Below, piece after piece: positions 4,533 through 62,836 of a stretch of DNA of 64,000 bases; the stretch's first letter is position 1, and every line of letters begins with the position of its first letter. Location: NCBI GenBank assembly GCA_028873525.1, contig JAGWIM010000001.1, positions 2,068 through 66,067 on the forward strand. Direction: 5' to 3'. This DNA is from Pseudomonadota bacterium (GTDB lineage Bacteria; Pseudomonadota; Alphaproteobacteria; Rickettsiales; SXRF01). The notes beneath the pieces were generated by a model. The model ran no database searches and was not told where the DNA came from. It was given only the letters and a program-made list of their open reading frames with translations. Both the position numbers and the translations under genes were made by a program.

Positions 4533-5488
4533 GTCCTTCCTCCCGCCAGCAACTCCAGCACCGCCTGCCGCACGGCGACGCCCATCTCCACCTGCTGCAG
4601 AATCAGGCTGCGGCCAAGGTCATCAGCCAGCCTGGAGTCAATTTCGACGCCACGGTTGATAGGCCCCGGATGCATGATCAGCGCATCCGGTTTGGCGTAA
4701 GAGAGTTTTTCCTCGTCCAGCCCCCAGAAGTGGAAATATTCGCGCATGGACGGCACGAAATTACGCTCCATGCGCTCCATCTGCAACCGCAGCATCATAA
4801 TAATATCGCAATCCTTAAGCCCCTTTCGCATGTCGTGAAACACTTTCGCGCCGAACGATTCGGCGTGCGGCGGCATCAGCGTCGTCGGCCCGATGACGCG
4901 CACTCTTGCGCCCAGCAGATTCAGCAGTTTCATGTTCGAGCGCGCGACGCGCGAGTGCAGAATATCGCCGCAAATGGCCACCGTCAGCCCCTCGATTTTT
5001 TTCTTGTGCTGCAAAATGGTCAGCGCATCGAGAAGCGCCTGCGTCGGATGCTCGTGGCAGCCGTCACCGCCGTTGATGACCGAACAGTTGACCTTCTGCG
5101 CCAGCAGATGCACCGCCCCTGATTCCGGGTGGCGCACCGAGATGAAATCCGGGTGCATGGCGTTGAGCGTCATCGCCGTGTCAATCAGCGTCTCGCCTTT
5201 TTTGGTCGAGGAATTCGACACCGACATGTTGATGACATCCGCGCCGAGGCGCTTGCCCGCCAGTTCGAAGCTGGTGCGCGTGCGTGTGGAATTCTCAAAA
5301 AACAGATTGATAAGCGTGCGCCCTTTGAGGATGGCGTGTTTTTTGTCGGGCTGGCGGTTTTTGGCGATATAGATTCCGGCGAGGTCGAGAACGGCATAGA
5401 CATCGCTGCGCGAAAGCCCGTCGATGCCCAGCAGGTGCCGGTGAGGGAAGGGCTTGGCGGCGGAAGCGGCTTTCATCAAGATAGACAT
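4529..5488 (-). CDS. pyrB: aspartate carbamoyltransferase catalytic subunit
   Basis: ATCase motifs are present ([25 protein letters not shown]). The tracked ORF extends to 5578, but the ATG at 5488 (MSILMKAAS) gives the usual length. Confidence 0.9.
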
Positions 5489-5983
5489 ATATACCGATAA
5501 TGTGCGTTCAGGCAATGCTTGTTGCAAAATGTATATCGTGCAACGTTCGCCATGTATCAAAGCTGGAAACCATCTCAAGCCATTAACAAGGCTATATCGA
5601 CGGAACTTACTTATTCATCACTGCCGGTAATATTGATAAGGTAGACTGTTATTATTCAATCATTATCCTGTACCGCCACTGAGGCCGGCGCAACAAAAAT
5701 GCCTCGAGTCCATACCCATGCCGTGAGCAATGATATAATCTTCCGTGGGGTTAAGAGAGAAAAACCGCTTGATTTCCTGTTATTTACGGGTAAAAATGCG
5801 CGCCTATTTCACTTATAGCACGGCATCCGGCAGCGCGGAGGCTGGAGAATTGCCGTTGTGGCGCAACTGTTTAACCCGAAACGCCGCTGACGTTTCATAA
5901 CGAGTAAGCGGCGGTCAGCGGCCAGCGGTCAGGTAATAAACTGGTCGCTGCCAACTGGCCGCCGGCGACTAAAGAAAGCATTT

Positions 5984-7714
5984 ATGGCTCAGGCAGCACA
6001 GGCAATGAATATGGAAGTGGAAGATTTTGGCGCGTTATTCGAGGAATCCGTCAAAACATCGGGCAAGAACGAAGGTTCGGTCATCACGGGCACGGTGATT
6101 TCCGTGGAAAAGGATACCGTCATCATTGATGTCGGCCTGAAATCGGAAGGCCGCGTTCCTCTGCGCGAATTCCAGGTCGGCAATACCACACCGGAACTGC
6201 GCGCCGGCGATGAAGTCGAAGTGTTCCTGGAGCGCATCGAAAACAAGCATGGCGAAGCGGTCTTAAGCCGCGAAAAAGCGCTGCGCGAGGAAGCCTGGAC
6301 AAAGCTGGAAAAAGCCTGCGCCGACGCCACCCGCGTCGAAGGCGTGATTTTTGGCCGCGTCAAGGGCGGCTTTACCGTGGATATTCAGGGCGCCGTGGCG
6401 TTCCTGCCCGGCTCACAGGTGGACATCCGCCCGATCCGCGATGTCGGCCCGCTGATGCACATCCCGCAGCCGTTCCAGATTCTGAAGATGGACCGGAAGC
6501 GCGGCAATATTGTCGTCTCGCGCCGCGCCGTGCTGGAAGAATCGCGCAGCGAACAGCGCGAGCAACTGCTGGGCAAGATAGCCGAGGGGCAGATACTGGA
6601 CGGCATGGTCAAGAATATCACCGATTACGGCGCGTTCATCGATATGGGCGGCATCGACGGGCTGCTGCACGTCACCGATATTTCCTGGCGGCGCATCGCC
6701 CATCCTTCCGAAGTGCTGCATGTCGGCCAGACCGTGCGCGTGATGGTCACCAAGTTCGACCCGGCCACCAAGCGCGTCAGCCTCGGCATCAAGCAGCTCG
6801 AGGAAAACCCGTGGCAGGGCGCCGATGTCAAATACCCGAATGGCGCCAGGCTGCGCGGCAAAATCACCAATATCACCGATTACGGCGCGTTCGTCGAACT
6901 GGAGCCTGGCATCGAAGGGCTGGTGCACGTATCGGAAATCTCGTGGGTCAAGAAGAGCGCACACCCGTCGAAGCTGGTGTCGGTCAGCCAGGAAGTCAAT
7001 GTCGTGGTACTCGACATTGATGCGTCCAAGCACCGCATTTCCCTGGGCATGAAACAGTGCGAGGACAACCCCTGGGCGGCATACGCCGGCAAAGTCCATG
7101 CCGGCGACACCATTGAAGGCGAAATCCGCAACATCACCGATTTCGGCCTGTTCATCGGGCTGGATGGGGATATTGACGGCCTCATCCACCATTCCGATTT
7201 GAGCTGGAACGAACCTGGCGACGTTGCCATCAAGAATTACAAGAAGGGCGACCGCGTCAAGGCGAAAATACTGGCCATTGACGTGGACAAAGAGCGCGTG
7301 TCTCTCGGCGTCAAGCAGTTGGAGAACGACCCGTTCGAGGCCGAATTCGGCGAAATCCAGAAGGGGGCGACCCTCACCTGCACCGTCACCGAAGTGCAGG
7401 GCGACGGTATCAGCGTTAAGGTCAGCGAGCATATTCAGAGCTTTATCAAGAAGTCCGACCTGGCGCGCGACCGGCAGGACCAGCGCCCCGACCGCTTCGC
7501 CGTCGGCGACCGCGTGGACGTGAAAGTCACCGCGGTGGACAAGACGACGCGCAAGGTCGGCGTTTCCATCAAGGCGCTGGAGGCCGACGAGCACAAGAAA
7601 GCCATCGCCGAATACGGCTCAACCGACAGCGGCGCTTCGCTTGGAGACATCCTGGGCGCGGCGCTGGATGAAGCAAAAACAGAAAAAACGACGAAGAAGA
7701 CGAAAAAGAGCTAG
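5984..7714 (+). CDS. rpsA: 30S ribosomal protein S1
   Basis: 576-aa ORF with six S1 repeats (recurrent ITDYGAFV/DGLLHVSEISW blocks). Ends in TAG at 7712-7714. Confidence 0.95.
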   Translation: MAQAAQAMNMEVEDFGALFEESVKTSGKNEGSVITGTVISVEKDTVIIDVGLKSEGRVPLREFQVGNTTPELRAGDEVEVFLERIENKHGEAVLSREKALREEAWTKLEKACADATRVEGVIFGRVKGGFTVDIQGAVAFLPGSQVDIRPIRDVGPLMHIPQPFQILKMDRKRGNIVVSRRAVLEESRSEQREQLLGKIAEGQILDGMVKNITDYGAFIDMGGIDGLLHVTDISWRRIAHPSEVLHVGQTVRVMVTKFDPATKRVSLGIKQLEENPWQGADVKYPNGARLRGKITNITDYGAFVELEPGIEGLVHVSEISWVKKSAHPSKLVSVSQEVNVVVLDIDASKHRISLGMKQCEDNPWAAYAGKVHAGDTIEGEIRNITDFGLFIGLDGDIDGLIHHSDLSWNEPGDVAIKNYKKGDRVKAKILAIDVDKERVSLGVKQLENDPFEAEFGEIQKGATLTCTVTEVQGDGISVKVSEHIQSFIKKSDLARDRQDQRPDRFAVGDRVDVKVTAVDKTTRKVGVSIKALEADEHKKAIAEYGSTDSGASLGDILGAALDEAKTEKTTKKTKKS

Positions 7715-8000: not shown

Positions 8001-8303
8001 ATGCGCGATGCTACCAGACTGATTTTTTCCTATCTGGAAGAAGACCCCGGCCGAGGCTCCCGCACTCGTGACGCAATCATCCGGCAACTGGAGGTTATCG
8101 GCGAAGCATGCAATCATATCGCTCCCCAAATACAAAAGCGCTATCCTCAGATACCGTGGCGTGAAACCGTCGCCATGCGCCACCATTTATCGCATGGCTA
8201 TTTCCAGGTAAAAATAAAGGACGTATGGGAGACAATGGATAATGATCTTCAGCCATTGCAGGAAGCAGTTCTTTCCATGCTGAACGATCCATCAATATTG
8301 TAA
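8001..8303 (+). CDS. HepT-like (DUF86) RNase toxin
   Basis: 100-aa ORF. Rx4HxY motif present as RHHLSHGY. Paired with the upstream MNT gene. Short N-terminus for the family. Confidence 0.75.
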   Translation: MRDATRLIFSYLEEDPGRGSRTRDAIIRQLEVIGEACNHIAPQIQKRYPQIPWRETVAMRHHLSHGYFQVKIKDVWETMDNDLQPLQEAVLSMLNDPSIL

Positions 8304-10033: not shown

Positions 10034-10719
10034 ACGTGAAAGTAAAAATCTGCGGACTGAATGACGAAGCGGCGGTGCAGGCCGCTATCAAGGCCGGCGC
10101 CGACTTTGCCGGCTTTGTTTTTTATCCCGGTTCGCCGCGCCATATCGCTTTGAAGCGCGCGGCGGAATTGAACGCGCTTCTGCCGCCGCGCATCAAAAGC
10201 GCATCGGTGCTGGTCGATCCCGATGACGCGCTGCTGGCGGAAGTGCGGTCGATACTAAAGCCGGACTATGTGCAATTACATGGCAACGAAACGCCACGGC
10301 GCCTGCGGGAGATAAAAAAAACATTCCCCAACATAAAAATCATTAAGGCGATTTCCGTGCACGGCGGCGACGACGTGGCGCAGGCCGGAATGTTTTATGA
10401 TTGTGCGGATATGCTGATGTTTGATGCGGCTAGCTTTCCCGCAGAGCGCAGCGATGCGTTGGAAAGCTGCCGTCCCCGCGAAGGCGGGGACCCAGTTCTT
10501 CCCGGCGGCAACGGCCTTGCATTCGACTGGGTTCTCCTTGCCAGGCGCGAATTGCCGTTGCCATGGTTCCTTTCCGGCGGGTTGACTCCGGAAAATGTCG
10601 CCGATGCCATCCGCATCAGCGGCGCCGGAATGATTGATGTCTCCTCTGGCGTCGAGCGTGAGCGCGGTGTAAAAGATGCGAGCCTGATTGAAGCGTTTAT
10701 CAAAGCGGCAAAAACATGA
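10030..10719 (+). CDS. trpF: phosphoribosylanthranilate isomerase
   Basis: KICGL...[10 protein letters not shown]...QLHG...FDW...SGGLTPENV...DVSSGVE. Carries an extra segment of about 14 aa encoded by a palindromic element at 10472-10491. Confidence 0.85.
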
Positions 10720-11918
10720 AGATAAGCAACACGCAGCCTGATTCCCACGGCCATTTCGGCACTTACGGCGGCCGGTATGTCGCCGAAACGCTGATGCCGC
10801 TCGTCCTCGAAGTCGAGCGCGCATATAACGCGGCGAAAAACGATCCGGAATTCAAGCGCGGGCTGGATTATTATTTTGAGCATTACATCGGCCGCCCGTC
10901 GCCGCTGTATTTTGCCGAGCGGCTGACGAAACACTGCGGCGGCGCCAGGATTTATTTCAAGCGCGACGAGTTGAACCACACCGGCGCGCATAAAATTAAC
11001 AATTGCATCGGCCAGGGGTTGCTGGCCAGACGCCTCGGCAAAAAGCGCATCATCGCCGAAACCGGCGCCGGGCAGCACGGCGTCGCCACCGCCACGGTCT
11101 GCGCGCTGTTCGGGTTGGAATGCATTATTTATATGGGCGCGAAAGACATCGAACGGCAGGCGCCGAACGTGTTTCGCATGAAGCTGCTCGGCGCAAAGGT
11201 CGTGCCGGTCACGTCCGGCAGCAAGACGCTGAAAGACGCGATGAACGAGGCGTTGCGCGACTGGGTGAGCAACGTCGCCACCACCTATTACCTCATCGGC
11301 ACCGCCGCCGGGCCGCACCCCTATCCGGAAATGGTGCGTGATTTCCAGTCCGCCATTGGCAGGGAAACGCGCGAGCAATTGCATAAGGCCGAGGGCAGGC
11401 TGCCCGATACGCTGGTCGCCTGCATCGGCGGCGGCAGCAACGCCATCGGTCTGTTCCACCCGTTCCTGAGCGAGCCGGAGGTGAAGATGATCGGCGTCGA
11501 GGCGGCAGGGCGCGGGCTGGATTCCGGCCAACATGCGGCGTCAATCGCGCGCGGCCAGCCCGGCGTGCTGCATGGCGCGCGCAGCTATCTGTTGCAGACC
11601 GACGATGGCCAGGTGCAGGACGCGCATTCAATTTCCGCCGGGCTGGATTATCCCGGCATCGGCCCGGAACATTCCTGGCTGCATGACACCGGCCGCGTGG
11701 AGTATGTCTCCGCCACCGATGACGAAGCGCTGGCGGCGTTCCAGACCGTTTCAAAACTGGAGGGAATTATTCCGGCGCTGGAACCGGCGCACGCGCTGGC
11801 GCATGTCTTAAAATTCGCGCCGCCGCTTCCCAAAAATCATTTGCTGGTGGTAAACGTCTGCGGCCGCGGCGATAAGGATATTTTCACCGTGGCCAAAGCG
11901 CTGGGGGTGGAGTTGTGA
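10716..11918 (+). CDS. trpB: tryptophan synthase beta chain
   Basis: 400-aa ORF with the PLP-lysine block (HTGAHKINN) and GGGSNAIG. 4-nt overlap with trpF. Confidence 0.95.
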
Positions 11919-12298
11919 TAAAAGATTTTACAAAATGGCATAAAATAAAAACCCTGCTTGAGGGCAAGCAGAAACTTCCTATCTATCAAACCCGCGAAAT
12001 ATGGTGGTGCAGCCTAGGCGCAAATATCGGTCATGAACAGGATGGAAAAAGCGGATTCTATCTTCGGCCAGTGCTTGTCATACGCAAATTCAATCCGCAT
12101 ATCTTCTTTGGGGTGCCACTTACCACGCGGATAAAAGAAAATCCTTATTATCATCGCATTCACTTCAGAGGAAAAGAACAGTGCGTTATGCTCTCGCAAT
12201 TGCGATTGTGGGACAGCAAACGCCTTTCCCAGAAAATGGGAAAATTGCCGGAAGACCAATTTGAGGAAATAAGAAATGCTTTGAAAGGCTTAATGTAA
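11915..12298 (+). CDS. PemK/MazF-like toxin-fold protein, no obvious antitoxin
   Basis: 127 aa. [33 protein letters not shown] and [14 protein letters not shown] resemble the MazF/PemK SH3-like core. The GTG start overlaps the trpB TGA (GTGA). Clearly AT-richer than trpB and trpA. Confidence 0.6.
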
Positions 12299-12574: not shown

Positions 12575-13375
12575 ATGACCTCCCGCATCGAAAAAACCTT
12601 CGCCAGACTTCGCGCTGAAAAACGCGCGGCGCTGATACCCTTCGTCATGGGTTACGACCCGGATGCGAAAACGTCGGCGGCGGTGCTGGACGCGCTGCCG
12701 GAAGCGGGCGCGGACATCGTTGAAATCGGGATGCCGTTTTCCGATCCCGTAGCCGACGGGCCGGTGATCCAGGCGGCGGGGCTGCGTGCGCTGAAAGCGG
12801 GAGCAACGGTTTCCGGTATCCTGGAACTCGTGCGCGAGTTTCGCAAGAAACATGCAAATACGCCGGTGATTCTGATGGGCTATTTCAATCCGGTCTATCG
12901 CTATGGCTGCGAAAGATTCTGCCAAGATGCAGTAGCGGCTGGGGCGGACGGCATCATTCTGGTGGATTTGCCGCCGGAAGAAGAACAGGAAATGCGGCCG
13001 CATCTTGAGGCGACGGGACTCAAGCTCATCCGCCTCGTCGCTCCAACCAGCGGCGACGACCGCTTGCCGCTGCTGGCCAAATCCGCCAGCGGATTTATCT
13101 ATTATATTTCCATCACCGGCATCACCGGCGCGCAAGCAGCCGATGCGCTGGAACTAAAAACGAAGGTTGACCATCTGCGGAAATTCACCGCGCTGCCGGT
13201 GGCCGTCGGCTTCGGTATCAAAACACCGCGGCAGGCGGCGCAGGCGGCCAGTTGCGCCGATGCGGTGGTGGTGGGCAGCGCGCTGGTGGATGCCGTCGCG
13301 CATCAGAAAGACCGCGCCCACGCCGTCAAGGCGGCCAGCGCTTTTGTCAGGGAACTGGCGGAAGCGCTTGGATAA
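12575..13375 (+). CDS. trpA: tryptophan synthase alpha chain
   Basis: 266-aa ORF with [21 protein letters not shown] and GFGI blocks. Confidence 0.9.
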
Positions 13376-17184: not shown

Positions 17185-18357
17185 TCATACCCTCATCGGC
17201 ATGATGACGTAGAGCGCGCCGACATCGGCGGTGTCGCGGACGATGGCGGGCGCGGCGCCGTCCGACAGCAGAAACTGCGCGGTGTCGCCCTCGATATTGG
17301 TCATCATATCGAGCAGGTAGCGCGAGTTGAAGCCGATCTCGATCAGCGTCGAGGCATAGGTGACGTCGATTTCCTCCGACGCCGTGCCCTGCTCGGCGCT
17401 GGAGGCCGACAGCGTCAGCTTGCCGTTTTCAATATGAAACTTGATGGCGCGCGATTTCTCCGATGAAATCACCGACACGCGGTCCACCGCTTCGGTGAAG
17501 GATTTGCGGTCGACTTCGAGAATCTTGTCGTTGCCGGAGGGGATGACGCGCTCGTAATCCGGGAAGTTGCCGTCGATGAGCTTCGACACCAGCACGGCAT
17601 TGCCGCAGACGAAGCGGATTTTCGCTTCCGACAGCGACACGCCGACATCGCCGCCGCTTTCCTCGAGCAGTTTTTTCAGCTCGTAAATCGCCTTGCGCGG
17701 CACGATGACGCCGGGCATCCCATCCGCCCCGGCGGGTGTCGCGGTTTCGATGCGCGCCAGCCGGTGGCCGTCGGTGGCGACGGCGCGCAGCGCCTTGGCT
17801 TTGCCGCTGCCGGAGAGGTGCAGGTAAATGCCATTCAGGTAATACCGCGTTTCCTCGGTCGAGATGGCGAAGCTCGGTTTTTCGATGAGCGATTTGCAGT
17901 CGGCGGCTTTCAGCGTGAAGTTAAAGGCCAGATCGCCGTCGGCCATCACCGGAAACTCATCCACCGGCAGGCAGGCCAGCGAGAAGCGCGAATGGCCGCT
18001 CTTGATGGTCACCTTGCTGTCGCCGGAGGAAAGCTCAATCTGCGCGCCTTCGGGGAGCTTGCGCACGATGTCATAAAACGTGTGCGCGGGAACGGTGGTG
18101 GCGCCGTTCTTGCTCACCGTCGCCGGAATTTTTTCGGCGATGGAAATGTCCATGTCGGTGGCGGTGAGGCTGACGCCGTCGCCCCTGGCCTCGATTTTCA
18201 CGTTGGAGAGCACGGCGATGGTGCCGCGCCGTTCGACGACGGATTGCACGTGCCCCAGCGCCTTCAGCAGATGCGCGCGCTCGATGGTGAATTTCATGGC
18301 GGAATCGCCGGCTGCGGCTTCCGGTGCTTTGCTGCGGGTGGCTGTGGCTGTGGTCAT
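17185..18357 (-). CDS. dnaN: DNA polymerase III subunit beta
   Basis: MKFTIERAHLLKAL...PMRV is typical of the sliding clamp. The conserved start is the ATG at 18297. The tracked ORF adds 20 N-terminal residues. Confidence 0.9.
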   Translation of the reverse strand: MTTATATRSKAPEAAAGDSAMKFTIERAHLLKALGHVQSVVERRGTIAVLSNVKIEARGDGVSLTATDMDISIAEKIPATVSKNGATTVPAHTFYDIVRKLPEGAQIELSSGDSKVTIKSGHSRFSLACLPVDEFPVMADGDLAFNFTLKAADCKSLIEKPSFAISTEETRYYLNGIYLHLSGSGKAKALRAVATDGHRLARIETATPAGADGMPGVIVPRKAIYELKKLLEESGGDVGVSLSEAKIRFVCGNAVLVSKLIDGNFPDYERVIPSGNDKILEVDRKSFTEAVDRVSVISSEKSRAIKFHIENGKLTLSASSAEQGTASEEIDVTYASTLIEIGFNSRYLLDMMTNIEGDTAQFLLSDGAAPAIVRDTADVGALYVIMPMRV

Positions 18358-18424
18358 AATTTTCTCCCTGTATTCTTTAATTAATCATTCCTTGGGAAAA
18401 AGGCAATGGATTTAAGAGATGGGA

Positions 18425-19027
18425 TTATATTTCCCTGGCGTGCGGCTTGTTGCCGCGATTATCTAAAATTGCATTTTCACTCATGGCGACTTCAATGGGC
18501 AAAAACATTGTGTCAAGCGCCTTGACCAAGGTAGCAATATTCCTCTTTCCTGACTCCCCTTCGGTGAGCGTATCAAGACGTAGCTGGCGTAACTCATCTG
18601 CCACAAATATGGCTGATATTCCGCTCACGAATAACATGGTGGGTGGCGCAACGTCTTTCAAGGCATCCATAATTCCCTCCGTTTTTGCTTTATTATCACG
18701 CATTCTGTTTCCCAGCCTCGCTGTTACGCCCCTAAAGCCAACGACGGTTGCTGCTAACGCAGCCGCGTTTATAAGCCAGTAGCGGCGATTAATCCTGGAT
18801 TTTCCGAAAACTTCAGCCAATGATTCTTTTTCGTTGTTATCCAGTCCTATGGTGGGGGAGCCATTCATAATGGCCCTGCGTATTTTATCCCAGAACTTCT
18901 CGAATGCATCAAAGCCATGTTTTTCAATGTGAATAGTGATAAAGCGCTTGCCAGAACTATCAGGCATGTTCCGCACATATTCGCAGAATATGTCCTGATT
19001 ACGCTTTTCTTCTTCGCCGGCGCTCAC
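18425..19027 (-). CDS. hypothetical membrane-associated protein inserted between dnaA and dnaN
   Basis: 200-aa ORF, AT-richer than its flanks. The GTG start overlaps the dnaA TGA (GTGA); an alternative ATG is at 18967. Two hydrophobic segments ([30 protein letters not shown]). No motif recognised. Confidence 0.5.
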
Positions 19028-20433
19028 CCCTGCAACATCCGGCTTAAAAGCTCAATATCCTTGGCGAACTCGTTGTCGGCGCCCATCAGCTCGTCGACGC
19101 GCTTCACCGCGTGCATGACGGTGGTGTGGTCCTTGCCGCCGAACCGCCGGCCGATTTCCGGCAGACTCTTGGAGGTGAATTTCTTGGACAGGTACATGGC
19201 GACCTGCCTTGGCCGCGCCACCACGCGCGAGCGCCGCGCCGAGTGCATGTCCGACACCTTGATGTTATAATGCTCGGCGGTGCGTTTCTGGATGTCCTCA
19301 ATGGTGAGTCTCCGGTCGTTTGCGCGCAATAAATCATGCAGCACTTCCTGCGTGGTTTCCAGCGTCACCGGGCGGCCGACCAGCGTTGCGTGCGCCACGA
19401 CGCGGTTCAGCGCGCCTTCCAGCTCGCGCACGTTGGAGGTGATGCGGTGCGCCAGGAATTCCGCCACCTTTTGTGGAATCGTCACGCCTTTCATCCGGTC
19501 AATCTTCGATTGCAAAATACCAAGGCGCAGCTCAAATGTCGTGGCGTGGATGTCGGCCACCAGCCCCCAGCCGAGCCGCGAGCGCACGCGCTCTTCCATG
19601 CCCTCCAAATCGGAGGGACTGCGGTCGCCGGAGAGGATCAACTGCTTGTTCTGGTCGACCAGCGCGTTAAAGGTGTGGAAAAATTCCTCCTGCGTGGCGT
19701 CCTTGCCGCTGATGAACTGCACGTCGTCAATCATCAGCACATCCACCGAGCGGAAATATTCCTTGAAGGCCAGCGCTTCCTTGAAGCGCAGCGCCTTGAT
19801 GAACTGATACATGAATTTTTCCGCCGAGAGATAGAGCACGCGGCGCTGCGGGTTGCTGCGGCGGATGTGCCAGGCGATGGCGTGCATCAGGTGGGTTTTG
19901 CCGAGGCCGACGCCGCCGTAAAGAAACAGCGGATTGCAGCCGGACACCACTTCCGTCGCCTCGGCGACGCGACGCGCCGCGGCATGCGCCAGTTCATTAG
20001 GCTTGCCGACGACGAAATTCTCGAACGTGTAACGCGGGTCAAGCGCCGCCCCTATCTGCACATCGGCCTCCGCAGTAATCGGCGTCTGCCAGTTTCCGGC
20101 GGTGATGACGTTCGACGCGGCAGCCGGCTCAGCGGGGGTAACGGCGGATAGTGCCGGCACGATAATATCAATCGTGTAGTCCGCCGCTTCCGGCTCCTGC
20201 TGCCAGAGGGCGCGAATGTCATCGCCATAATGCGAGGTGATCCATTCGCGCATGAAGCGCGTCGGCACGGAAAGCAGCACGCGACCGTCCTTGCTTCCGG
20301 CGTAACGCAGCGGCTTCAGCCAACTCTTGAACACGGCATCGCCGTACAGGGCGCCCAGTTTGCCGCTGACCCGCTCCCATACGAGCGCCAGCGTATCCTT
20401 GACTTTTTCCTGCCCTGCCGTTGCTAATGCCAT
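19024..20433 (-). CDS. dnaA: chromosomal replication initiator protein DnaA
   Basis: 469-aa ORF with AAA+ Walker A ([13 protein letters not shown]), Walker B (LMIDDVQF) and the domain IV block ([11 protein letters not shown]). Confidence 0.95.
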
Positions 20434-41402: not shown

Positions 41403-41849
41403 TTACTCGCCGCGTGAAACAATATCGGGTCCGCCGGATTCAAGCGCCGCAATGAACGCGCCCCGAACGCGGTAGAAAAAACGTTTCGGCAATCGCCCAT
41501 AGACAATAGTTTCCGCATCGCCTCCTGCCGCCATGCGCAAATCCGGCCCCGGCCAGGTAAAGCGATTGGCTTCCGTCAGCATAACCCATGAGCGCATATC
41601 ATCAAGACCAAGCCGGCGTTTCATATCGGCGGGAATTTCCATCGCCGATTCAGCCTGCGAAAGCGAAGGCGGCGTATGCGTAATCGGCAGTACGGTGACA
41701 ATGTCTTTTCCTTCTTCATTTTTGACCAACAGTACAATGGCGCACGGGCGATCCTTCACGCCCTCTTCCTGCCCGCGCTCATGCTCGGCATTCCACAAGT
41801 AGAAATAGCGGATGACGTACGCTTCTTGCGGTTGCGGGAACAAAATCAC
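41403..41849 (-). CDS. putative toxin partner of the Phd/YefM antitoxin (MazF/PemK-fold-like)
   Basis: 148 aa. 4-nt overlap with the upstream antitoxin ORF. YFYLWNAEHERGQEEGVKDRPCAIVLLV resembles the MazF-type ...RPAVVL strand. Family assignment is uncertain. Confidence 0.5.
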   Translation of the reverse strand: MILFPQPQEAYVIRYFYLWNAEHERGQEEGVKDRPCAIVLLVKNEEGKDIVTVLPITHTPPSLSQAESAMEIPADMKRRLGLDDMRSWVMLTEANRFTWPGPDLRMAAGGDAETIVYGRLPKRFFYRVRGAFIAALESGGPDIVSRGE

Positions 41850-42103
41850 TCACCCCATTCATGGTCGAGACCTTCCGCCTCGAGAGCCGCTTGCGCTTTC
41901 TTCAAATCCTCAATATCCTTCTCGGTGAAATCGGCCGGCGTCATCACCTGCCGGTCGCGGCGCTTAAGGCGCTGGTATTCTTCCGTTGACATAAACACAA
42001 TGCGCCCGCGGCCGTTTTTGGTCATCGTCACCGGCTCGACCAGCGCCTTATCCGTATAAAGACCAAAATTACGCTGAAATTCTACTGAAGATACGGTTTC
42101 CAT
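41846..42103 (-). CDS. Phd/YefM-family antitoxin
   Basis: 85 aa. The N-terminus METVSSVEFQRNFGLYTDKALVEPVTMTKNGRGRIVFMSTEEYQRL matches the Phd/YefM pattern. RBS GGAGG. Confidence 0.7.
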   Translation of the reverse strand: METVSSVEFQRNFGLYTDKALVEPVTMTKNGRGRIVFMSTEEYQRLKRRDRQVMTPADFTEKDIEDLKKAQAALEAEGLDHEWGE

Positions 42104-42117
42104 AATTCCTCCATAAG

Positions 42118-42149
42118 CTATGTATTATACATAGTATACGTATACTATG
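42118..42149. promoter_or_regulatory. overlapping palindromes: candidate operator/promoter of the Phd-toxin operon
   Basis: Perfect 20-bp palindrome CATAGTATACGTATACTATG (42130-42149) overlapping the 17-bp palindrome CTATGTATTATACATAG (42118-42134). They lie 15-46 nt upstream of the antitoxin ATG and overlap the tatC stop. Confidence 0.5.
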
Positions 42150-42906
42150 TAGGTATGTCAACAGGCTTTCCCATATTCCTGCACACGAAAATCGATATTT
42201 CATACAACAGGTACAGCGGAACCGAAAGCGCAATCTGGCTGAAAATGTCCGGCGGGGTAATGAAAGCGGCTATGGTAACGATAATCACCACCGCATAGCG
42301 CCGCCCGCGCTTCAGCGTCTCCAGCGACAGAATACCCGCCCGCACCAGCAGCACCAGCACCACCGGCAATTGGAACGACAGGCCGAAAGCGATAATCAGG
42401 TGCATGGCGATGTTGAGGTAATCGCCGACGCGCGCCTCCAGTTGAATGGGCAGCGCGCCGAGGATGGCCGGACTTTCAAAACTCAGGAAAAACCGCCACG
42501 CCGCCGGAAAAATCACGTAATAAGCAAACGCCGCGCCGCCGATAAACAACAGCGGCGAAGCAACAAGATAGGGGATGAACGCCCGCCGCTCGCGCTGGTA
42601 AAGCCCAGGCGCAAGGAATCGGTAAAGCTGCATTGCGATCACCGGAAACGACAGCATAAATCCGCCAAACACCGCCAGTTTCAGGTAAGCGAGAAAAGGC
42701 TCGGTCAGGCTGGTATAAATCAGCCGCCGGTGCTCAGGATTAGGGAACGCTTCGGCCAGCGGCCGCACGAGAATGGCGTAAATATCGCCCGCCACCAGGT
42801 AACATAAAACCGTCGCTGCGAGAAACGCCAGCAGGCAGACAACCAGGCGGCGGCGCAGCTCAATCAGGTGGTCGATGATGGGTTGCCGGGGGAGGTCGAT
42901 GGTCAT
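42145..42906 (-). CDS. tatC: twin-arginine translocase subunit TatC
   Basis: 253 aa with six TM helices. HLIELRRRL N-terminus and a TPPD block. Confidence 0.9.
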   Translation of the reverse strand: MTIDLPRQPIIDHLIELRRRLVVCLLAFLAATVLCYLVAGDIYAILVRPLAEAFPNPEHRRLIYTSLTEPFLAYLKLAVFGGFMLSFPVIAMQLYRFLAPGLYQRERRAFIPYLVASPLLFIGGAAFAYYVIFPAAWRFFLSFESPAILGALPIQLEARVGDYLNIAMHLIIAFGLSFQLPVVLVLLVRAGILSLETLKRGRRYAVVIIVTIAAFITPPDIFSQIALSVPLYLLYEISIFVCRNMGKPVDIPT

Positions 42907-42964: not shown

Positions 42965-43043
42965 ACGCGAATCTCTAATATTCGTGCTATCGTATAAGAC
43001 AGTGTTATTATTTAATTTCTAGCCCAAATAAGGGGTGCTTGTC

Positions 43044-43511
43044 ATGCCATTCAGAAACGGCAAAATTGCAGGTGTGCTCAATAACAGTGATTCAAGCACC
43101 AATGAGATGAGTTATGTCGATATGCACGACCTGCATCCTGATAACGTGCAGGCTGCGCAGGTGCATGGCGCAGTAGATGGTGCTATGTCAGGCGCAACGT
43201 TAGCAGCCATACCAGCAGCACTGATGTCGTTTGGAACCGAAACTGTAATTGAGGAAGGAGCCGAGCATCTTCACTTCAACCTCAAAAATGGGAAGATTGG
43301 TGCTGCAATTATTGCATTAGGTGCTGTTGTAATGGGCGCAGTTCGTTCGTTTACTGCCAAGAAAGAAGCTGAAACCCATAACGCATGGTCTGAGCGTGTC
43401 TTATCGCGCATGGAACAGCGGGAAGCAGTTGAGGCTGAGGCTAAACATGCCGCCGCTGTTATAACTCAGCGTGAACAAGCTGCACAGGGTACGCAGCAAG
43501 CAGGTAAATAA
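43044..43511 (+). CDS. hypothetical Gly/Ala-zipper membrane protein
   Basis: 155 aa from the ATG at 43044 (AAGGGG 8 nt upstream); the tracked GTG is at 43035. AT-richer than its flanks. Has GAVDGAMSGATLAAIPAALMSFG and IGAAIIALGAVVMGAV segments and an Ala/Glu/Gln-rich tail. Confidence 0.4.
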   Translation: MPFRNGKIAGVLNNSDSSTNEMSYVDMHDLHPDNVQAAQVHGAVDGAMSGATLAAIPAALMSFGTETVIEEGAEHLHFNLKNGKIGAAIIALGAVVMGAVRSFTAKKEAETHNAWSERVLSRMEQREAVEAEAKHAAAVITQREQAAQGTQQAGK

Positions 43512-43535: not shown

Positions 43536-44268
43536 GGGTCAAGACTACTTGAGCGGGTTATTACGGAGTAATGATAACAGTATTTTATAGATGTTGTCAT
43601 TACGATGATTATAGCGGAACTCGGTTTCTTTAAGATGCAGGTAGAAGGTTGATTTCGCCATACCCCTGAACTTTGCAAGTCGTACTTTTGCGATACCCCA
43701 GAAGCCTTCAATGCCATTGACATGAGTGTGCCCTCTGGCGAATTCATCCTTGCCGTGATCGACCCGGAAGTGGCCGTAGCCAATGTCTACCAAGCCGTTA
43801 TATCCTCTCCAGCCGTCCGAGTTGACAACGGACTCCGCCGCCACCTTTCCTCGGATAATGGCTTGCAGCGTTGATTTGGAGCAATCCGGCACGATCTCGG
43901 TGTACACATGGCCGTTGCGTTCGTAGATGCCAAACACCGTGGTTTTGCCGTAAGCGCCTCGGCCACGCTTGCCCTTCACCCGGCGAGCACCGAACCATGA
44001 TTCGTCCACTTCCACCGTGCCGCTGAATGGAAATTGTTCCTCGCAATAGGCGGCAATGTGCTCACGAATGCCTTGCAGATACCGATTCACCGTGTTGCGA
44101 TTCAGCCCCGTCAGATAGGCAATTTGCGTTGCCATCAGGTCAGCCGAAAACAGCTTAACCAACATCCGAAATTGCTTCTCTGAAATGCGGGAACGAAATT
44201 TATACTTGCTCTTCTGCGCCATCACTAGCTTGTAGCATACTTCCTATATGCTCAAGTAGTCTTGACCC
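43536..44268 (-). mobile_element. IS1595-family insertion sequence (733 bp), apparently intact
   Basis: Perfect 19-bp terminal inverted repeats GGGTCAAGACTACTTGAGC (43536-43554 and 44250-44268). 8-bp direct target duplication ACATTTAA (43528-43535 and 44269-44276). Single transposase ORF. Confidence 0.85.
43545..44225 (-). CDS. IS1595-family (ISXO2-like) DDE transposase
   Basis: 226 aa. VEVDESWFGARRVKGKRGRGAYGKTTVFGIYERNGHVYTEIVPDCS...DGWRGYNGL...HVNGIEGFWGIAKVRLAKFRG is characteristic. An ATG is at 44222. Confidence 0.85.
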   Translation of the reverse strand: MMAQKSKYKFRSRISEKQFRMLVKLFSADLMATQIAYLTGLNRNTVNRYLQGIREHIAAYCEEQFPFSGTVEVDESWFGARRVKGKRGRGAYGKTTVFGIYERNGHVYTEIVPDCSKSTLQAIIRGKVAAESVVNSDGWRGYNGLVDIGYGHFRVDHGKDEFARGHTHVNGIEGFWGIAKVRLAKFRGMAKSTFYLHLKETEFRYNHRNDNIYKILLSLLRNNPLK

Positions 44269-44276
44269 ACATTTAA

Positions 44277-44558
44277 TTATGCCTCTTCTTTCTTCTTCGG
44301 CATTTCATATATCTCGTACATTTTACCATCATCGCCACGGATCATTTTAACGTCGTGTTTGAATTCCTCAGCGGACTCATTGAGTCCCGCTTCGCGGCCC
44401 AGCTCATCAAAAGACTGCCGCACTTCATTGCCCAGTTGCCGCACGCCGCGCATCGCTTTGGCAACGCCGCGCAGCACCGCCGGCAATTCCTTCGGCCCGA
44501 TGAACACGACGGCGACGATGACAATCAGCGCCAGCTCAGCGAATGAGAAATCGAACAT
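44277..44558 (-). CDS. tatB: twin-arginine translocase subunit TatB
   Basis: 93 aa. MFDFSFAELALIVIVAVVFIGPKELP N-terminus followed by an amphipathic helix. Confidence 0.75.
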   Translation of the reverse strand: MFDFSFAELALIVIVAVVFIGPKELPAVLRGVAKAMRGVRQLGNEVRQSFDELGREAGLNESAEEFKHDVKMIRGDDGKMYEIYEMPKKKEEA

Positions 44559-44709: not shown

Positions 44710-44880
44710 TTATGGTTTATCCTTCGGCTCGGCGTTGCCTTCTTCCTCCCCCTTAAGCCCCTCGCGCAGGTTACGGATGCCCTTGCCGACGTCGCCCATC
44801 ACCTTGGGCAGCCTTCCGGCGCCGAAAATAACCAGCACGACGATTAAAATAAGCAGCAGATGCAAGAAACTCAGTCCCAT
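44710..44880 (-). CDS. tatA: twin-arginine translocase subunit TatA
   Basis: Hand translation gives MGLSFLHLLLILIVVLVIFGAGRLPKVMGDVGKGIRNLREGLKGEEEGNAEPKDKP (56 aa). Below the ORF-track cut-off. Confidence 0.8.
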   Translation of the reverse strand: MGLSFLHLLLILIVVLVIFGAGRLPKVMGDVGKGIRNLREGLKGEEEGNAEPKDKP

Positions 44881-61096: not shown

Positions 61097-62836
61097 ATGC
61101 CCGCTGAAAAAAAATCCGCGCCTGCCGCCATCACTCCCGCTGATGACAATGACCAGGACGGCAAAAGCAATCCCGTCAGTAATAATATGGTCTCCGGAAT
61201 GCTGGCGCTGGCGGCGGGCGCGATTGCGTTCTTCGCCGGCGGCGAGGTCATCGGCCTGATCGGCGCGCTGATCATCGCCGCGATTGCATTCTTCATCGGC
61301 AGCGCGTTGGGGCTGGACAAGGGCGGCTTCTTCGCCAGCAAACCTGTCGCGCCCGCCGCGCCGCCCACACCCGATACACCAGCCGCTGCTCCTGCTGCTG
61401 CTACTGAGGCTACGACTGCCGCTGCCGATAAAGCCGCTGCCGATAAAGCCGCTGCCGACAAGGCCGCTGCCGCTAAGGCCGCTGCCGACAAGGCCGCTGC
61501 CGACAAGGCCGCTGCCGACAAGGCCGCTGCCGACAAGGCCGCTGCCGATAAAGCCGCTGCCGCTAAGGCCGCTGCCGCTAAGGCCGCTGCCGACAAGGCC
61601 GCTGCCGACAAGGCCGCTGCCGATAAAGCCGCTGCCGCTAAGGCCGCTGCCGATAAAGCCGCTGCCGACAAGGCCGCTGCCGATTATGATGATGCCAGGA
61701 ATATTAAGCTGACCAATCCTGAGGGCAGCGTGCGGCGGCTGGTGACGTTTAATGTGCCGGATAACAATGGTAACGTTATCGCAACCATAACCGGACAGGT
61801 ATCAGGTGTGTCCGGCGGTCTTCAGTTCACACCCCAAACAGTACAGACTCCACTAACTGCGAGTACTGACAAGCCCGTCGTGGAAGCAATCGGGTATAAA
61901 CATGCGATAAAGATAGGGGAAGATAATATTCTGCATATTGAAAATGCGAATATCAAAGAACAGTTTGCAGGTATGATCAGGGTAATAAACAATACTGCTG
62001 TCAAGCAACGTGAGCATGAACAGAAAGTCTCTAATGATGAACGTGAAGCTCAAGAACGCCAGGATCGTGCTGACTATATCGCCATTCTAAAACAACAACC
62101 AGAGTGGACAAATATTGTAACTACACCCATACCGAAAACCACCAGTACCACCGTAGATTTTGATGTCAAATTCGTCTTCAAGGATACGATAAAAGAATAT
62201 CACGTCAGTGCTACGCACGAAGGAAAAAGCCATCAATTAAAAATCAATAACGTTTCACACCACGAACGTAACATTATTACGGATCCCCTTTACATCAATT
62301 GTCCCAACGGACTATCAGATGTAAACCCACAGAATACCAAGCTTACCAATATGTTCCAGAAATTGGCAGCGCAGGAAGAAGAAAATGCGAAAACTGCCGC
62401 TGCTGCGAAAACTGCTGCTCCTGCTGCTGCCGCTAAGGCCGCCGCCGCCGCTGCCCCGGCTAAGCCACCTGAAACCGCAGTGAACGATGGTGACAAGCAA
62501 CTTTCTGATGAATTCTTGAATAGTTTCAAAACTAGGCTATACAAACCTCGTTTTGCTTCAGAAAATACTGCCCCGGCTACGGGATCTACCGAGAAAAAGA
62601 ATAACGGCGCTTCGACACCGAGTCCTGACTTGAATATGATAATGACGGCTCTCAGTAGGCCCGTCACTATCATGCCTCTCCCGCAGTTAATACAGGGAGT
62701 TGGTGCTGGAGTGACAAGCGCAGTTCAACTGGCCTGGGAGCAAGTCAGCGCGGGCAGCAGTCAAACCCCGGCAGGAAGCCCAACAGTTAAAAACCCTCCG
62801 GGCAATAAGAAATCCCCTCCGCCACATACACCTTGA
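61097..62836 (+). CDS. hypothetical membrane-anchored repeat protein ((A)3-4(D/A)K repeats)
   Basis: 579 aa: N-terminal Gly-zipper TM region, about 17 AAADK/AAAAK pentapeptides, an AT-rich central region with no recognisable motif, a second Ala-rich stretch and a Pro-rich C-terminus. Confidence 0.55.
   Translation: MPAEKKSAPAAITPADDNDQDGKSNPVSNNMVSGMLALAAGAIAFFAGGEVIGLIGALIIAAIAFFIGSALGLDKGGFFASKPVAPAAPPTPDTPAAAPAAATEATTAAADKAAADKAAADKAAAAKAAADKAAADKAAADKAAADKAAADKAAAAKAAAAKAAADKAAADKAAADKAAAAKAAADKAAADKAAADYDDARNIKLTNPEGSVRRLVTFNVPDNNGNVIATITGQVSGVSGGLQFTPQTVQTPLTASTDKPVVEAIGYKHAIKIGEDNILHIENANIKEQFAGMIRVINNTAVKQREHEQKVSNDEREAQERQDRADYIAILKQQPEWTNIVTTPIPKTTSTTVDFDVKFVFKDTIKEYHVSATHEGKSHQLKINNVSHHERNIITDPLYINCPNGLSDVNPQNTKLTNMFQKLAAQEEENAKTAAAAKTAAPAAAAKAAAAAAPAKPPETAVNDGDKQLSDEFLNSFKTRLYKPRFASENTAPATGSTEKKNNGASTPSPDLNMIMTALSRPVTIMPLPQLIQGVGAGVTSAVQLAWEQVSAGSSQTPAGSPTVKNPPGNKKSPPPHTP
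61418..61684 (+). repeat. 15-bp tandem repeat GCCGCTGCCGA(Y)AA(R), about 17.8 copies, coding
   Basis: Direct reading. Units differ only at GAT/GAC/GCT and AAA/AAG positions. The mirror ORF on the minus strand (61012-61671) is an artefact of the repeat. Confidence 0.9.

Follow-up and report, generated by a model that had tools for sequence, protein, structure and literature searches.

Between the replication genes dnaA and dnaN of an uncultivated alphaproteobacterium (Rickettsiales lineage SXRF01) lies a gene for a 200-residue protein, here termed X, that belongs to a very small and previously undescribed family. The window in which it was studied is a stretch of 64,000 nucleotides, positions 2,068 to 66,067 of contig JAGWIM010000001.1. 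The reading favoured here is that X is a real, vertically inherited gene encoding a small inner-membrane protein, which is held in place by an internal, uncleaved signal-anchor of the twin-arginine translocation (Tat) type; this reading is held with confidence and doubt in about equal measure. X is considered a lineage-specific envelope or membrane accessory protein, rather than a selfish element.

A rare gene and its inheritance

The local gene order, rpsT-dnaA-X-dnaN-recF-gyrB on the minus strand, is the alphaproteobacterial arrangement with X placed within it. The features immediately concerned are:

19024-20433, minus strand: dnaA, upstream of X (Pfam Bac_DnaA, E 4.4e-68, plus Bac_DnaA_C and DnaA_N)
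18425-19027, minus strand: X, 200 amino acids, the member of a rare, undescribed family (open reading frame (ORF) listing and sequence)
18358-18424, minus strand: the X-dnaN spacer, 67 nt and AT-rich (read from the sequence)
17185-18357, minus strand: dnaN, encoding the beta clamp, downstream of X (Pfam DNA_pol3_beta, all three domains, E 1e-35 to 1e-41)

An earlier, sequence-only reading of the window had described an AT-rich ORF separating dnaA from dnaN on the same strand, and its coordinates, start-stop overlap, alternative start and peptide quotations were all correct. The GTG start of X (19027-19025) shares bases with the TGA stop of dnaA (19026-19024), giving GTGA, and the next in-frame ATG lies at 18967-18965 (Met21). 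Both of these potential starts exist, but the ATG is not favoured: homology backs the GTG, because the invariant residues F14 and Y17, and the confidently modelled first helix (residues 3-19), all precede Met21. The gene has a GC content of 0.468 and a GC content at third codon positions (GC3) of 0.50, relative to 0.61-0.62 and 0.80-0.83 in dnaA and dnaN.

HMMER was run exhaustively over 1.84 billion cluster representatives, standing for ~15 billion proteins, and identified 12 relatives (E 1.4e-25 to 7.1e-9), each of 187-224 amino acids and aligning with X from end to end at 30-38% identity. A later profile search added one further member, P0014, bringing the number of homologues to 13, such that, of roughly 15 billion proteins, the family accounts for about 14 clusters. 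Its 14 sequences are 21-48% identical to one another, with the exception of one pair at 86%, and share 14 invariant columns: F14, Y17, G26, F29, G38, F45, L62, E66, L70 and A71 in the N-terminal domain, the adjacent R81 and R82, and L171 and E184 towards the C-terminus. A word-indexed search of 5.8 billion clusters returned X itself alone when queried with the single sequence (as a hypothetical protein of a Pseudomonadota bacterium metagenome-assembled genome (MAG)), and three or four members when queried with profiles (A1 and A3, respectively). Scans of Joint Genome Institute (JGI) metagenome contigs with two sub-alignments recovered no family member, and X has no paralogue within the window.

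The sequence-only reading had recognised no known family in the translation, and neither profile nor structure searches have since supplied one. Pfam, NCBIfam, PHROGs and PADLOC gave nothing significant for the window protein or any family member, matches to DUF4411 being rejected as noise at E 0.2-0.25. The sole return of a PDB sequence profile search with X was a de novo designed helical bundle, which is taken as a chance similarity of amphipathic helices. Foldseek comparisons of the full-length model with the PDB and BFVD, and of the N-terminal domain model with the PDB, produced nothing with E <0.5, the best match of the domain in the PDB having an E value of 2.5. That reading had also allowed that the ORF might prove unconserved; instead, 13 homologues of about equal length and 14 invariant columns were found. 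Judged by this conservation, X is a real gene and not a chance ORF, and its family is very rare, fast-evolving and restricted to one group of uncultivated alphaproteobacteria.

The genomic contexts of the homologues, with GC3 for X and for a neighbour where these were compared, are as follows:

L084 (P0002): rpsT-rhodanese-dnaA-X, then the start of dnaN at the contig end; GC3 0.66 in X, 0.84 in the neighbour
L090 (P0006): methyltransferase-X-dnaN-mauE-recF-orf-gyrB; GC3 0.39 in X, 0.67 in the neighbour
L087 (P0004): pntB-X-xseB; GC3 0.46 in X, 0.71 in the neighbour
L088 (P0005): ABC-F-X; GC3 0.67 in X, 0.82 in the neighbour
L081 (P0009): ABC-F, then dinB divergent from X
L092 and L096 (P0007, P0010): queF divergent from X
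L093, L097 and L098 (P0008, P0011, P0014): queF/lysE/asnC-X, followed at some distance by coaD and gyrA

Presence in related genomes, which the sequence-only reading had named as a check, was found in the form of X occupying the same place upstream of dnaN in L084 and L090. Between L084 and the window, DnaA is 78% identical and X 37%; between L090 and the window, DnaN is 76%, GyrB 82% and X 30% identical. With RecF at 65% identity between the window and a related genome, housekeeping proteins span 65-82% in these comparisons (L084/L090). The same disparity was found in six further pairs of loci, in which X was about 35-48% identical, versus 62-89% for its syntenic neighbours, and the clusters formed by X sequences match the clusters formed by their contexts. 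Hence X, being conserved in place yet far more diverged than its neighbours, appears to be vertically inherited and quickly evolving, and on these comparisons it is a chromosomal gene that has kept its position directly upstream of dnaN in related genomes. The GC3 of X is below that of housekeeping neighbours in most genomes; as this also holds for the homologues, low GC3 is a family trait, rather than the scar of a recent transfer. The low GC content of X is compatible with weak selection on codon usage in a gene that evolves quickly.

Protein architecture and the twin-arginine motif

An AlphaFold2 model of X, with a 13-sequence alignment as input, had a mean predicted local distance difference test score (pLDDT) of 73.9 and a predicted template modelling score (pTM) of 0.61 at full length. 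Together with the alignment and hydropathy, it divides the protein into four parts:

18797-19027, minus strand: N-domain, residues 1-77, with helices at 3-19, 25-37, 39-55 and 64-77 (pLDDT ~90-96)
18719-18793, minus strand: twin-arginine (RR) motif and first hydrophobic segment, residues 79-103, reading I-N-R-R-Y-W-L-I, an uncharged run, then R-GVTA-R, an n/h/c layout like that of a Tat signal but in an internal position
18599-18643, minus strand: second hydrophobic segment, residues 129-143, Gly/Ala/Ser-rich, following a variable loop (hydropathy)
18476-18559, minus strand: C-terminal amphipathic helix, residues 157-184, with the conserved pattern G..GE.N...LV.ALD..F.P.E.A..E

Residues 1-80 modelled alone reached a pLDDT of 91.9 and a pTM of 0.76, and this high-confidence isolated model points to an autonomously folding four-helix N-domain; it contains no hydrophobic segment, and is predicted to be cytoplasmic. 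The two hydrophobic segments that the sequence-only reading had picked out are borne out by hydropathy, with the second peaking in all members (19-residue maxima of 1.3-1.9). In the model, both are spanned by two long helices of low confidence. The loop between them varies through insertions and deletions among members, and residues 112-136 of X, in the loop region, have a pLDDT <50. Confidence recovers in the C-terminal helix (pLDDT 88-93 in the full-length model), which contains the invariant L171 and E184 and a near-invariant L167.

The sequence-only reading had overlooked the arginine pair directly before the first hydrophobic segment. This pair, R81 and R82, is present in all 14 sequences and never replaced by lysine, within a family consensus of S-R-R-x-F-L-[KR]: position -1 is mostly S, +3 mostly F, W or L, +4 mostly L, and about five members have K or R at +5. 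P0007 and P0008 are among the members in which the motif is canonical. The uncharged run that follows is Gly/Ala/Ser/Thr-rich and 11-24 residues long (median about 15-16; 16 in X), with a 19-residue Kyte-Doolittle maximum mostly below the transmembrane threshold of 1.6. Most of these runs end in G or TG, and the first charged residue after them is K or R in 10 of the 14 members. Triplets resembling AxA (V-A-A, S-G-A, V-T-A, I-G-A) occur in some members, without being conserved. By the published definition (PMC7317946), a Tat signal has an all but invariant RR in the context SRRxFLK, then a Gly-rich h-region that is less hydrophobic, >=12 residues long and has a helix breaker towards its end, and after this a basic residue for Sec avoidance. 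Profile hidden Markov models (HMMs) of such signals matched family members at sub-threshold levels, namely PF10518 TAT_signal (best E 0.01, 2/13 members), PF10399 UCR_Fe-S_N (E 0.031, 2/13) and the NCBIfam model TIGR01409 (E 0.022, 3/13), and none of these Tat-signal models matched the window protein itself.

The window also encodes the machinery to which such a signal would be addressed:

44710-44880, minus strand: tatA (Pfam TatA_B_E, 1.4e-13, above gathering score)
44277-44558, minus strand: tatB (Pfam TatA_B_E, 2.4e-5, above gathering score)
42145-42906, minus strand: tatC (Pfam TatC, 1.4e-70)

The organism therefore has a Tat translocase that would recognise an RR motif. In the proposed arrangement, the four-helix N-domain would stay in the cytoplasm, while the RR motif would combine with the short Gly/Ala-rich segment of weak hydrophobicity, and with the basic residue that follows, to form an internal, uncleaved signal-anchor recognised by TatBC. 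This signal-anchor would put the loop and the second hydrophobic segment in or across the membrane, and the C-terminal amphipathic helix would be a likely surface for binding a partner or the N-domain itself.

The tat cluster is itself split, with an IS1595-family transposase gene (43545-44225, minus strand) and a 158-residue orphan (43035-43511, plus strand) lying between tatA/tatB and tatC. Two hydrophobic segments rich in Gly and Ala are present in the product of this low-GC orphan ORF, and hhalign showed no relationship between it and X.

Several observations weigh against a Tat signal-anchor. Firstly, the RR motif lies at residues 75-88 across the family, about 80 residues from the N-terminus and behind a conserved folded domain, whereas Tat signals are normally within about the first 35 residues, and we know of no characterised Tat substrate built in this way. 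Secondly, those internal RR motifs that are known follow Sec-inserted transmembrane helices, rather than a soluble domain (PMC3471239, PMC5449189). Thirdly, neither conserved Cys or His residues (family alignment) nor a recognisable cofactor domain (Pfam) were found after the motif, and hence there is no obvious need for export in the folded state. Fourthly, every Tat HMM match is below significance, even the best (E 0.01-0.03), and the motif of the window protein is degenerate (N-R-R-Y-W-L-I). Fifthly, the pTM of 0.61 and the confident C-terminal helix hint that this helix and the N-domain may be packed on one side of the membrane, in which case a hairpin inserted by Sec and YidC would fit as well as Tat. 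Finally, both hydrophobic segments are borderline for transmembrane helices, such that X might be soluble or peripheral.

The main rival to the Tat signal-anchor is such a plain Sec/YidC-inserted helical hairpin, whose termini would both be cytoplasmic, with the RR serving only as a positive-inside signal, or as a structural or binding pair; we consider this unlikely, but far from negligible. The spacing of two hydrophobic segments about 30-35 residues apart suits a hairpin, as does a model in which a confident N-domain and C-terminal helix could occupy one side, and the distance of the RR from the N-terminus, the lack of a cofactor domain behind it and the sub-threshold HMM matches all point the same way. 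However, positive-inside residues usually exchange lysine and arginine, yet the RR is invariant in 14 diverged sequences, and the Tat consensus is matched at the neighbouring S, F, L and K/R positions as well. Furthermore, the first segment is short (often ~15 uncharged residues), weakly hydrophobic and, in most members, followed by a basic residue of the Sec-avoidance type.

Replication genes and less probable readings

The position of X led the sequence-only reading to expect expression in step with dnaA, and the GTGA overlap, with no terminator-like site between dnaA and dnaN by consensus scan, is as that expectation would have it. In eight loci, X starts between -8 and +9 nt from the stop of the co-directional upstream gene, whichever gene that is. 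The overlapping start and stop, this spacing and the absence of a terminator between dnaA and dnaN together suggest co-transcription, and translation by termination-reinitiation. From this arrangement, translation of X is most likely coupled to the dnaA message. A terminator-like hairpin at 18526-18512, inside the X ORF, is within shuffle expectation.

The spacer downstream of X contains a good Shine-Dalgarno sequence before dnaN (AGGGAG, 18369-18364) and a weak promoter-like pair, TTGCCT (18406-18401) and TTAATT (18384-18379), separated by 16 nt; a consensus scan of the spacer identified neither a sigma-70-like site nor a terminator. The X-dnaN spacers of L084 (2720-2760) and L090 (3820-3860) have TTGCC-N16-TATAGTGACC in common, which is a likely dnaN promoter of those genomes. 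The TTGCCT-N16-TTAATT of the window would be a weaker counterpart, and is tentatively proposed as a candidate dnaN promoter.

Such a location invites the reading that X, anchored in the membrane, regulates or serves as an adaptor in chromosome replication or repair, for instance by tethering or titrating DnaA or the beta clamp, but this we judge improbable. X is coupled to dnaA, and is found directly upstream of dnaN in three genomes; in other subclades it adjoins dinB (L081) or xseB (L087), or lies 2-5 kb from gyrA (L093, L098), and by a rough post hoc count ~4/12 immediately adjoining gene slots are occupied by DNA-metabolism genes. Yet the three dnaN-linked cases represent one event by descent, other members adjoin queF, asnC, pntB or an ABC-F gene, and the fast evolution of X would be unusual in a core replication factor. 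Nor does it resemble known DnaA or clamp regulators in sequence or fold, with no Pfam, NCBIfam or PDB fold match to Hda, DiaA, HobA, YabA, SirA or others of this kind. A clamp-binding motif in the C-terminal helix was considered and rejected, as the candidate L-D-x-[LM]-F is wrongly spaced, lacks the Gln and forms part of a confident helix.

The dnaA-dnaN gap measures 50-300 nt in most alphaproteobacteria, but unrelated genes fill it elsewhere: a pyroglutamyl peptidase gene in an Asaia MAG (L003 7429-8073, Pfam 2.2e-41), and a gene for a DUF1272 protein in a Stellaceae MAG (L007 7604-7852, Pfam 1.3e-29). X shares with these genes their occupancy of the gap on the same strand, while being unrelated to them in sequence and family. 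Hence the site tolerates cargo without any link to replication.

Two further observations concern dnaA. In Magnetospirillum aberrantis, the dnaA-dnaN interval (L004 7421-10029) contains a 273-residue orphan ORF and a second dnaA-like ORF of 596 residues, which looks like a local dnaA duplication. Within the dnaA gene of the window, antisense to it (19865-19920, plus strand), there is a sub-threshold Rfam match to AsdA, an antisense RNA of dnaA mRNA (28.9 bits, versus a gathering score of 52), which probably reflects the conservation of the dnaA sequence and not an RNA gene.

That X is a soluble or peripheral protein of the coiled-coil type, with Gly/Ala-rich segments forming buried helix-helix interfaces, is also hard to credit. 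The 19-residue hydropathy maxima, mostly 1.1-1.75, are around or under the usual threshold of 1.6, AlphaFold2 predicts long continuous helices at 81-111, 118-155 and 157-184, and the top non-significant Foldseek matches are elongated helical structures, among them F-BAR domains, spectrin and AhlC in its soluble form. However, all of these fold matches have E >1, and the pLDDT of the hydrophobic region is low, at 44-65. Moreover, the uncharged runs of 11-24 residues are fixed in position and poorly conserved in sequence, as is typical of membrane segments.

The sequence-only reading had described X as inserted between dnaA and dnaN, in what it thought an interesting place for a selfish element. 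It is very improbable that X is a selfish or addiction-type gene, whether toxin or mobile cargo, that entered the replication operon from elsewhere. The low GC content of X relative to its flanks would suit such an origin, and genuine toxin and transposase genes, in other low-GC islands, are wedged into operons elsewhere in the window. Nevertheless, the low GC3 recurs across homologues, X is positionally orthologous across genomes whose housekeeping proteins are 65-82% identical, and its sequence clusters track its context clusters. Toxin-antitoxin systems and mobile cargo would be expected to have a partner gene, a mobile context or a match to a defence, toxin or phage family, and X shows none of these. 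No conserved partner gene stands beside X across the subclades, no integrase or transposase gene adjoins it, and the only flanking repeats are short ones at chance level. Searches found no relatives in plasmids and phages (tblastn) or in IMG/VR viral contigs, in addition to the lack of PADLOC and PHROG matches.

Elsewhere in the window, a gene for a PemK/MazF-like toxin (11915-12298, plus strand; Pfam 3e-15, GC 0.42) lies between trpB (10716-11918) and trpA (12575-13375), with a GTG start that overlaps the trpB stop in the same geometry as that of X behind dnaA. A HepT-like ribonuclease toxin (8001-8303, plus strand; Pfam 2.9e-20) is encoded within a low-GC island, and a Phd/YefM antitoxin (41846-42103) and a weak PemK-like toxin (41403-41849) between tatC and serS (minus strand). 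A 579-residue ORF in a low-GC island (61097-62836, plus strand) resembles the histone H1-like HC2 family weakly and below threshold (E 1.5e-7, 32 bits versus a cutoff of 40), and is probably a low-complexity, Lys/Ala-rich protein. In L090, small extra genes are also present downstream of X, in the form of a MauE-like ORF between dnaN and recF (5073-5564) and a 246-residue, low-GC (0.40) orphan between recF and gyrB (6800-7540), such that the dnaN-recF-gyrB cluster of the X-bearing lineage seems to accumulate small genes.

Although the region is AT-rich, and the dnaA-dnaN spacer is the origin of replication in many non-alphaproteobacterial phyla (reportedly in M. tuberculosis, for example), it is extremely improbable that X is a chance ORF in intergenic DNA or a replication origin, given its 13 protein homologues and confident fold, and an oriC here is ruled out by the conserved protein and the lack of repeats, of a GC-skew switch at the locus and of any DnaA box (TTATCCACA, <=1 mismatch) in 18358-19027; no Rfam match was found inside the X ORF.

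Implications and relation to known systems

The family of X is new and very small, and its confidently modelled N-terminal fold has no Foldseek counterpart in the PDB, nor has the full-length model in the PDB or BFVD. Were the internal RR functional, the family would represent a Tat topology class not yet described, in which a cytoplasmic domain is followed by a signal-anchor and a small, cofactor-less membrane or periplasmic part. Such proteins would be missed by standard predictors, which expect an N-terminal signal, and the X family would in that event offer a small natural system in which to study the handling by TatBC of signals away from the N-terminus. The position between dnaA and dnaN, fixed in one lineage, also makes X an inexpensive candidate for a link between the membrane and replication. 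The most ambitious combination of these ideas is that X is a dedicated replication partner in a little-known alphaproteobacterial lineage, made in fixed proportion to DnaA through translational coupling and anchored in the membrane by Tat, with the four-helix domain and the C-terminal helix tethering or titrating DnaA or the beta clamp there; this would be a long shot, but if true, initiation would be controlled in a way not seen before, and X would be the first Tat-anchored protein whose signal is preceded by a folded cytoplasmic domain. Should neither the Tat nor the replication idea hold, X would be one more lineage-specific, fast-evolving small membrane protein, and the main value of this work would be in identifying it as a real, vertically inherited gene, which is neither a selfish insertion nor a replication origin.

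Among known membrane proteins, single-pass anti-sigma factors and comparable small signalling proteins share with X a small, all-helical cytoplasmic N-domain (~80 residues) and a hydrophobic segment at ~80-100. This identity was rejected: no extracytoplasmic function (ECF) sigma factor gene adjoins X in ~10 contexts, and there is neither a Pfam match of the zf-HC2/RskA type nor a fold match.

The similarity to Tat signals and uncleaved signal-anchors, such as the Rieske N-terminus and the sequences modelled by PF10518, PF10399 and TIGR01409, is more extensive. The X family shares the RR consensus, the short, Gly-rich h-region of low hydrophobicity, the Gly near its end and, in most members, the basic residue that follows, and the window that encodes X also encodes the Tat machinery. 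It differs in that its HMM matches are sub-threshold, its motif begins from about residue 75-88, after an autonomously folding domain of 75 residues, and no cofactor-binding passenger domain lies behind it.

The closest precedents are the dual Sec-Tat proteins, among them the Rieske protein Sco2149 of Streptomyces, in which internal RR motifs are known to be functional (PMC3471239, PMC5449189). In this group, which includes Sco2149, Sco3746 and polyferredoxins (Keller 2012, Tooke 2017), the motif is preceded by 2-4 Sec-inserted transmembrane helices and followed by a globular metallo-cofactor domain, which X does not have. In X, a soluble helical domain precedes the motif, and the ~100 residues that follow comprise a loop, a hydrophobic segment and an amphipathic helix; its sequence bears no similarity to those of these proteins. 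No transmembrane helix precedes its RR: residues 1-80 lack any 15-residue hydropathy mean >=1.0 in 13 of the 14 members, and in the exception, P0008 (mean 1.05), the 15 residues concerned already overlap the RR motif. Yet the dual Sec-Tat proteins and X are alike in placing an internal RR before a weakly hydrophobic helix, with positive charge C-terminal to that helix. By analogy, X may work in the manner of the dual Sec-Tat proteins, without belonging to that group.

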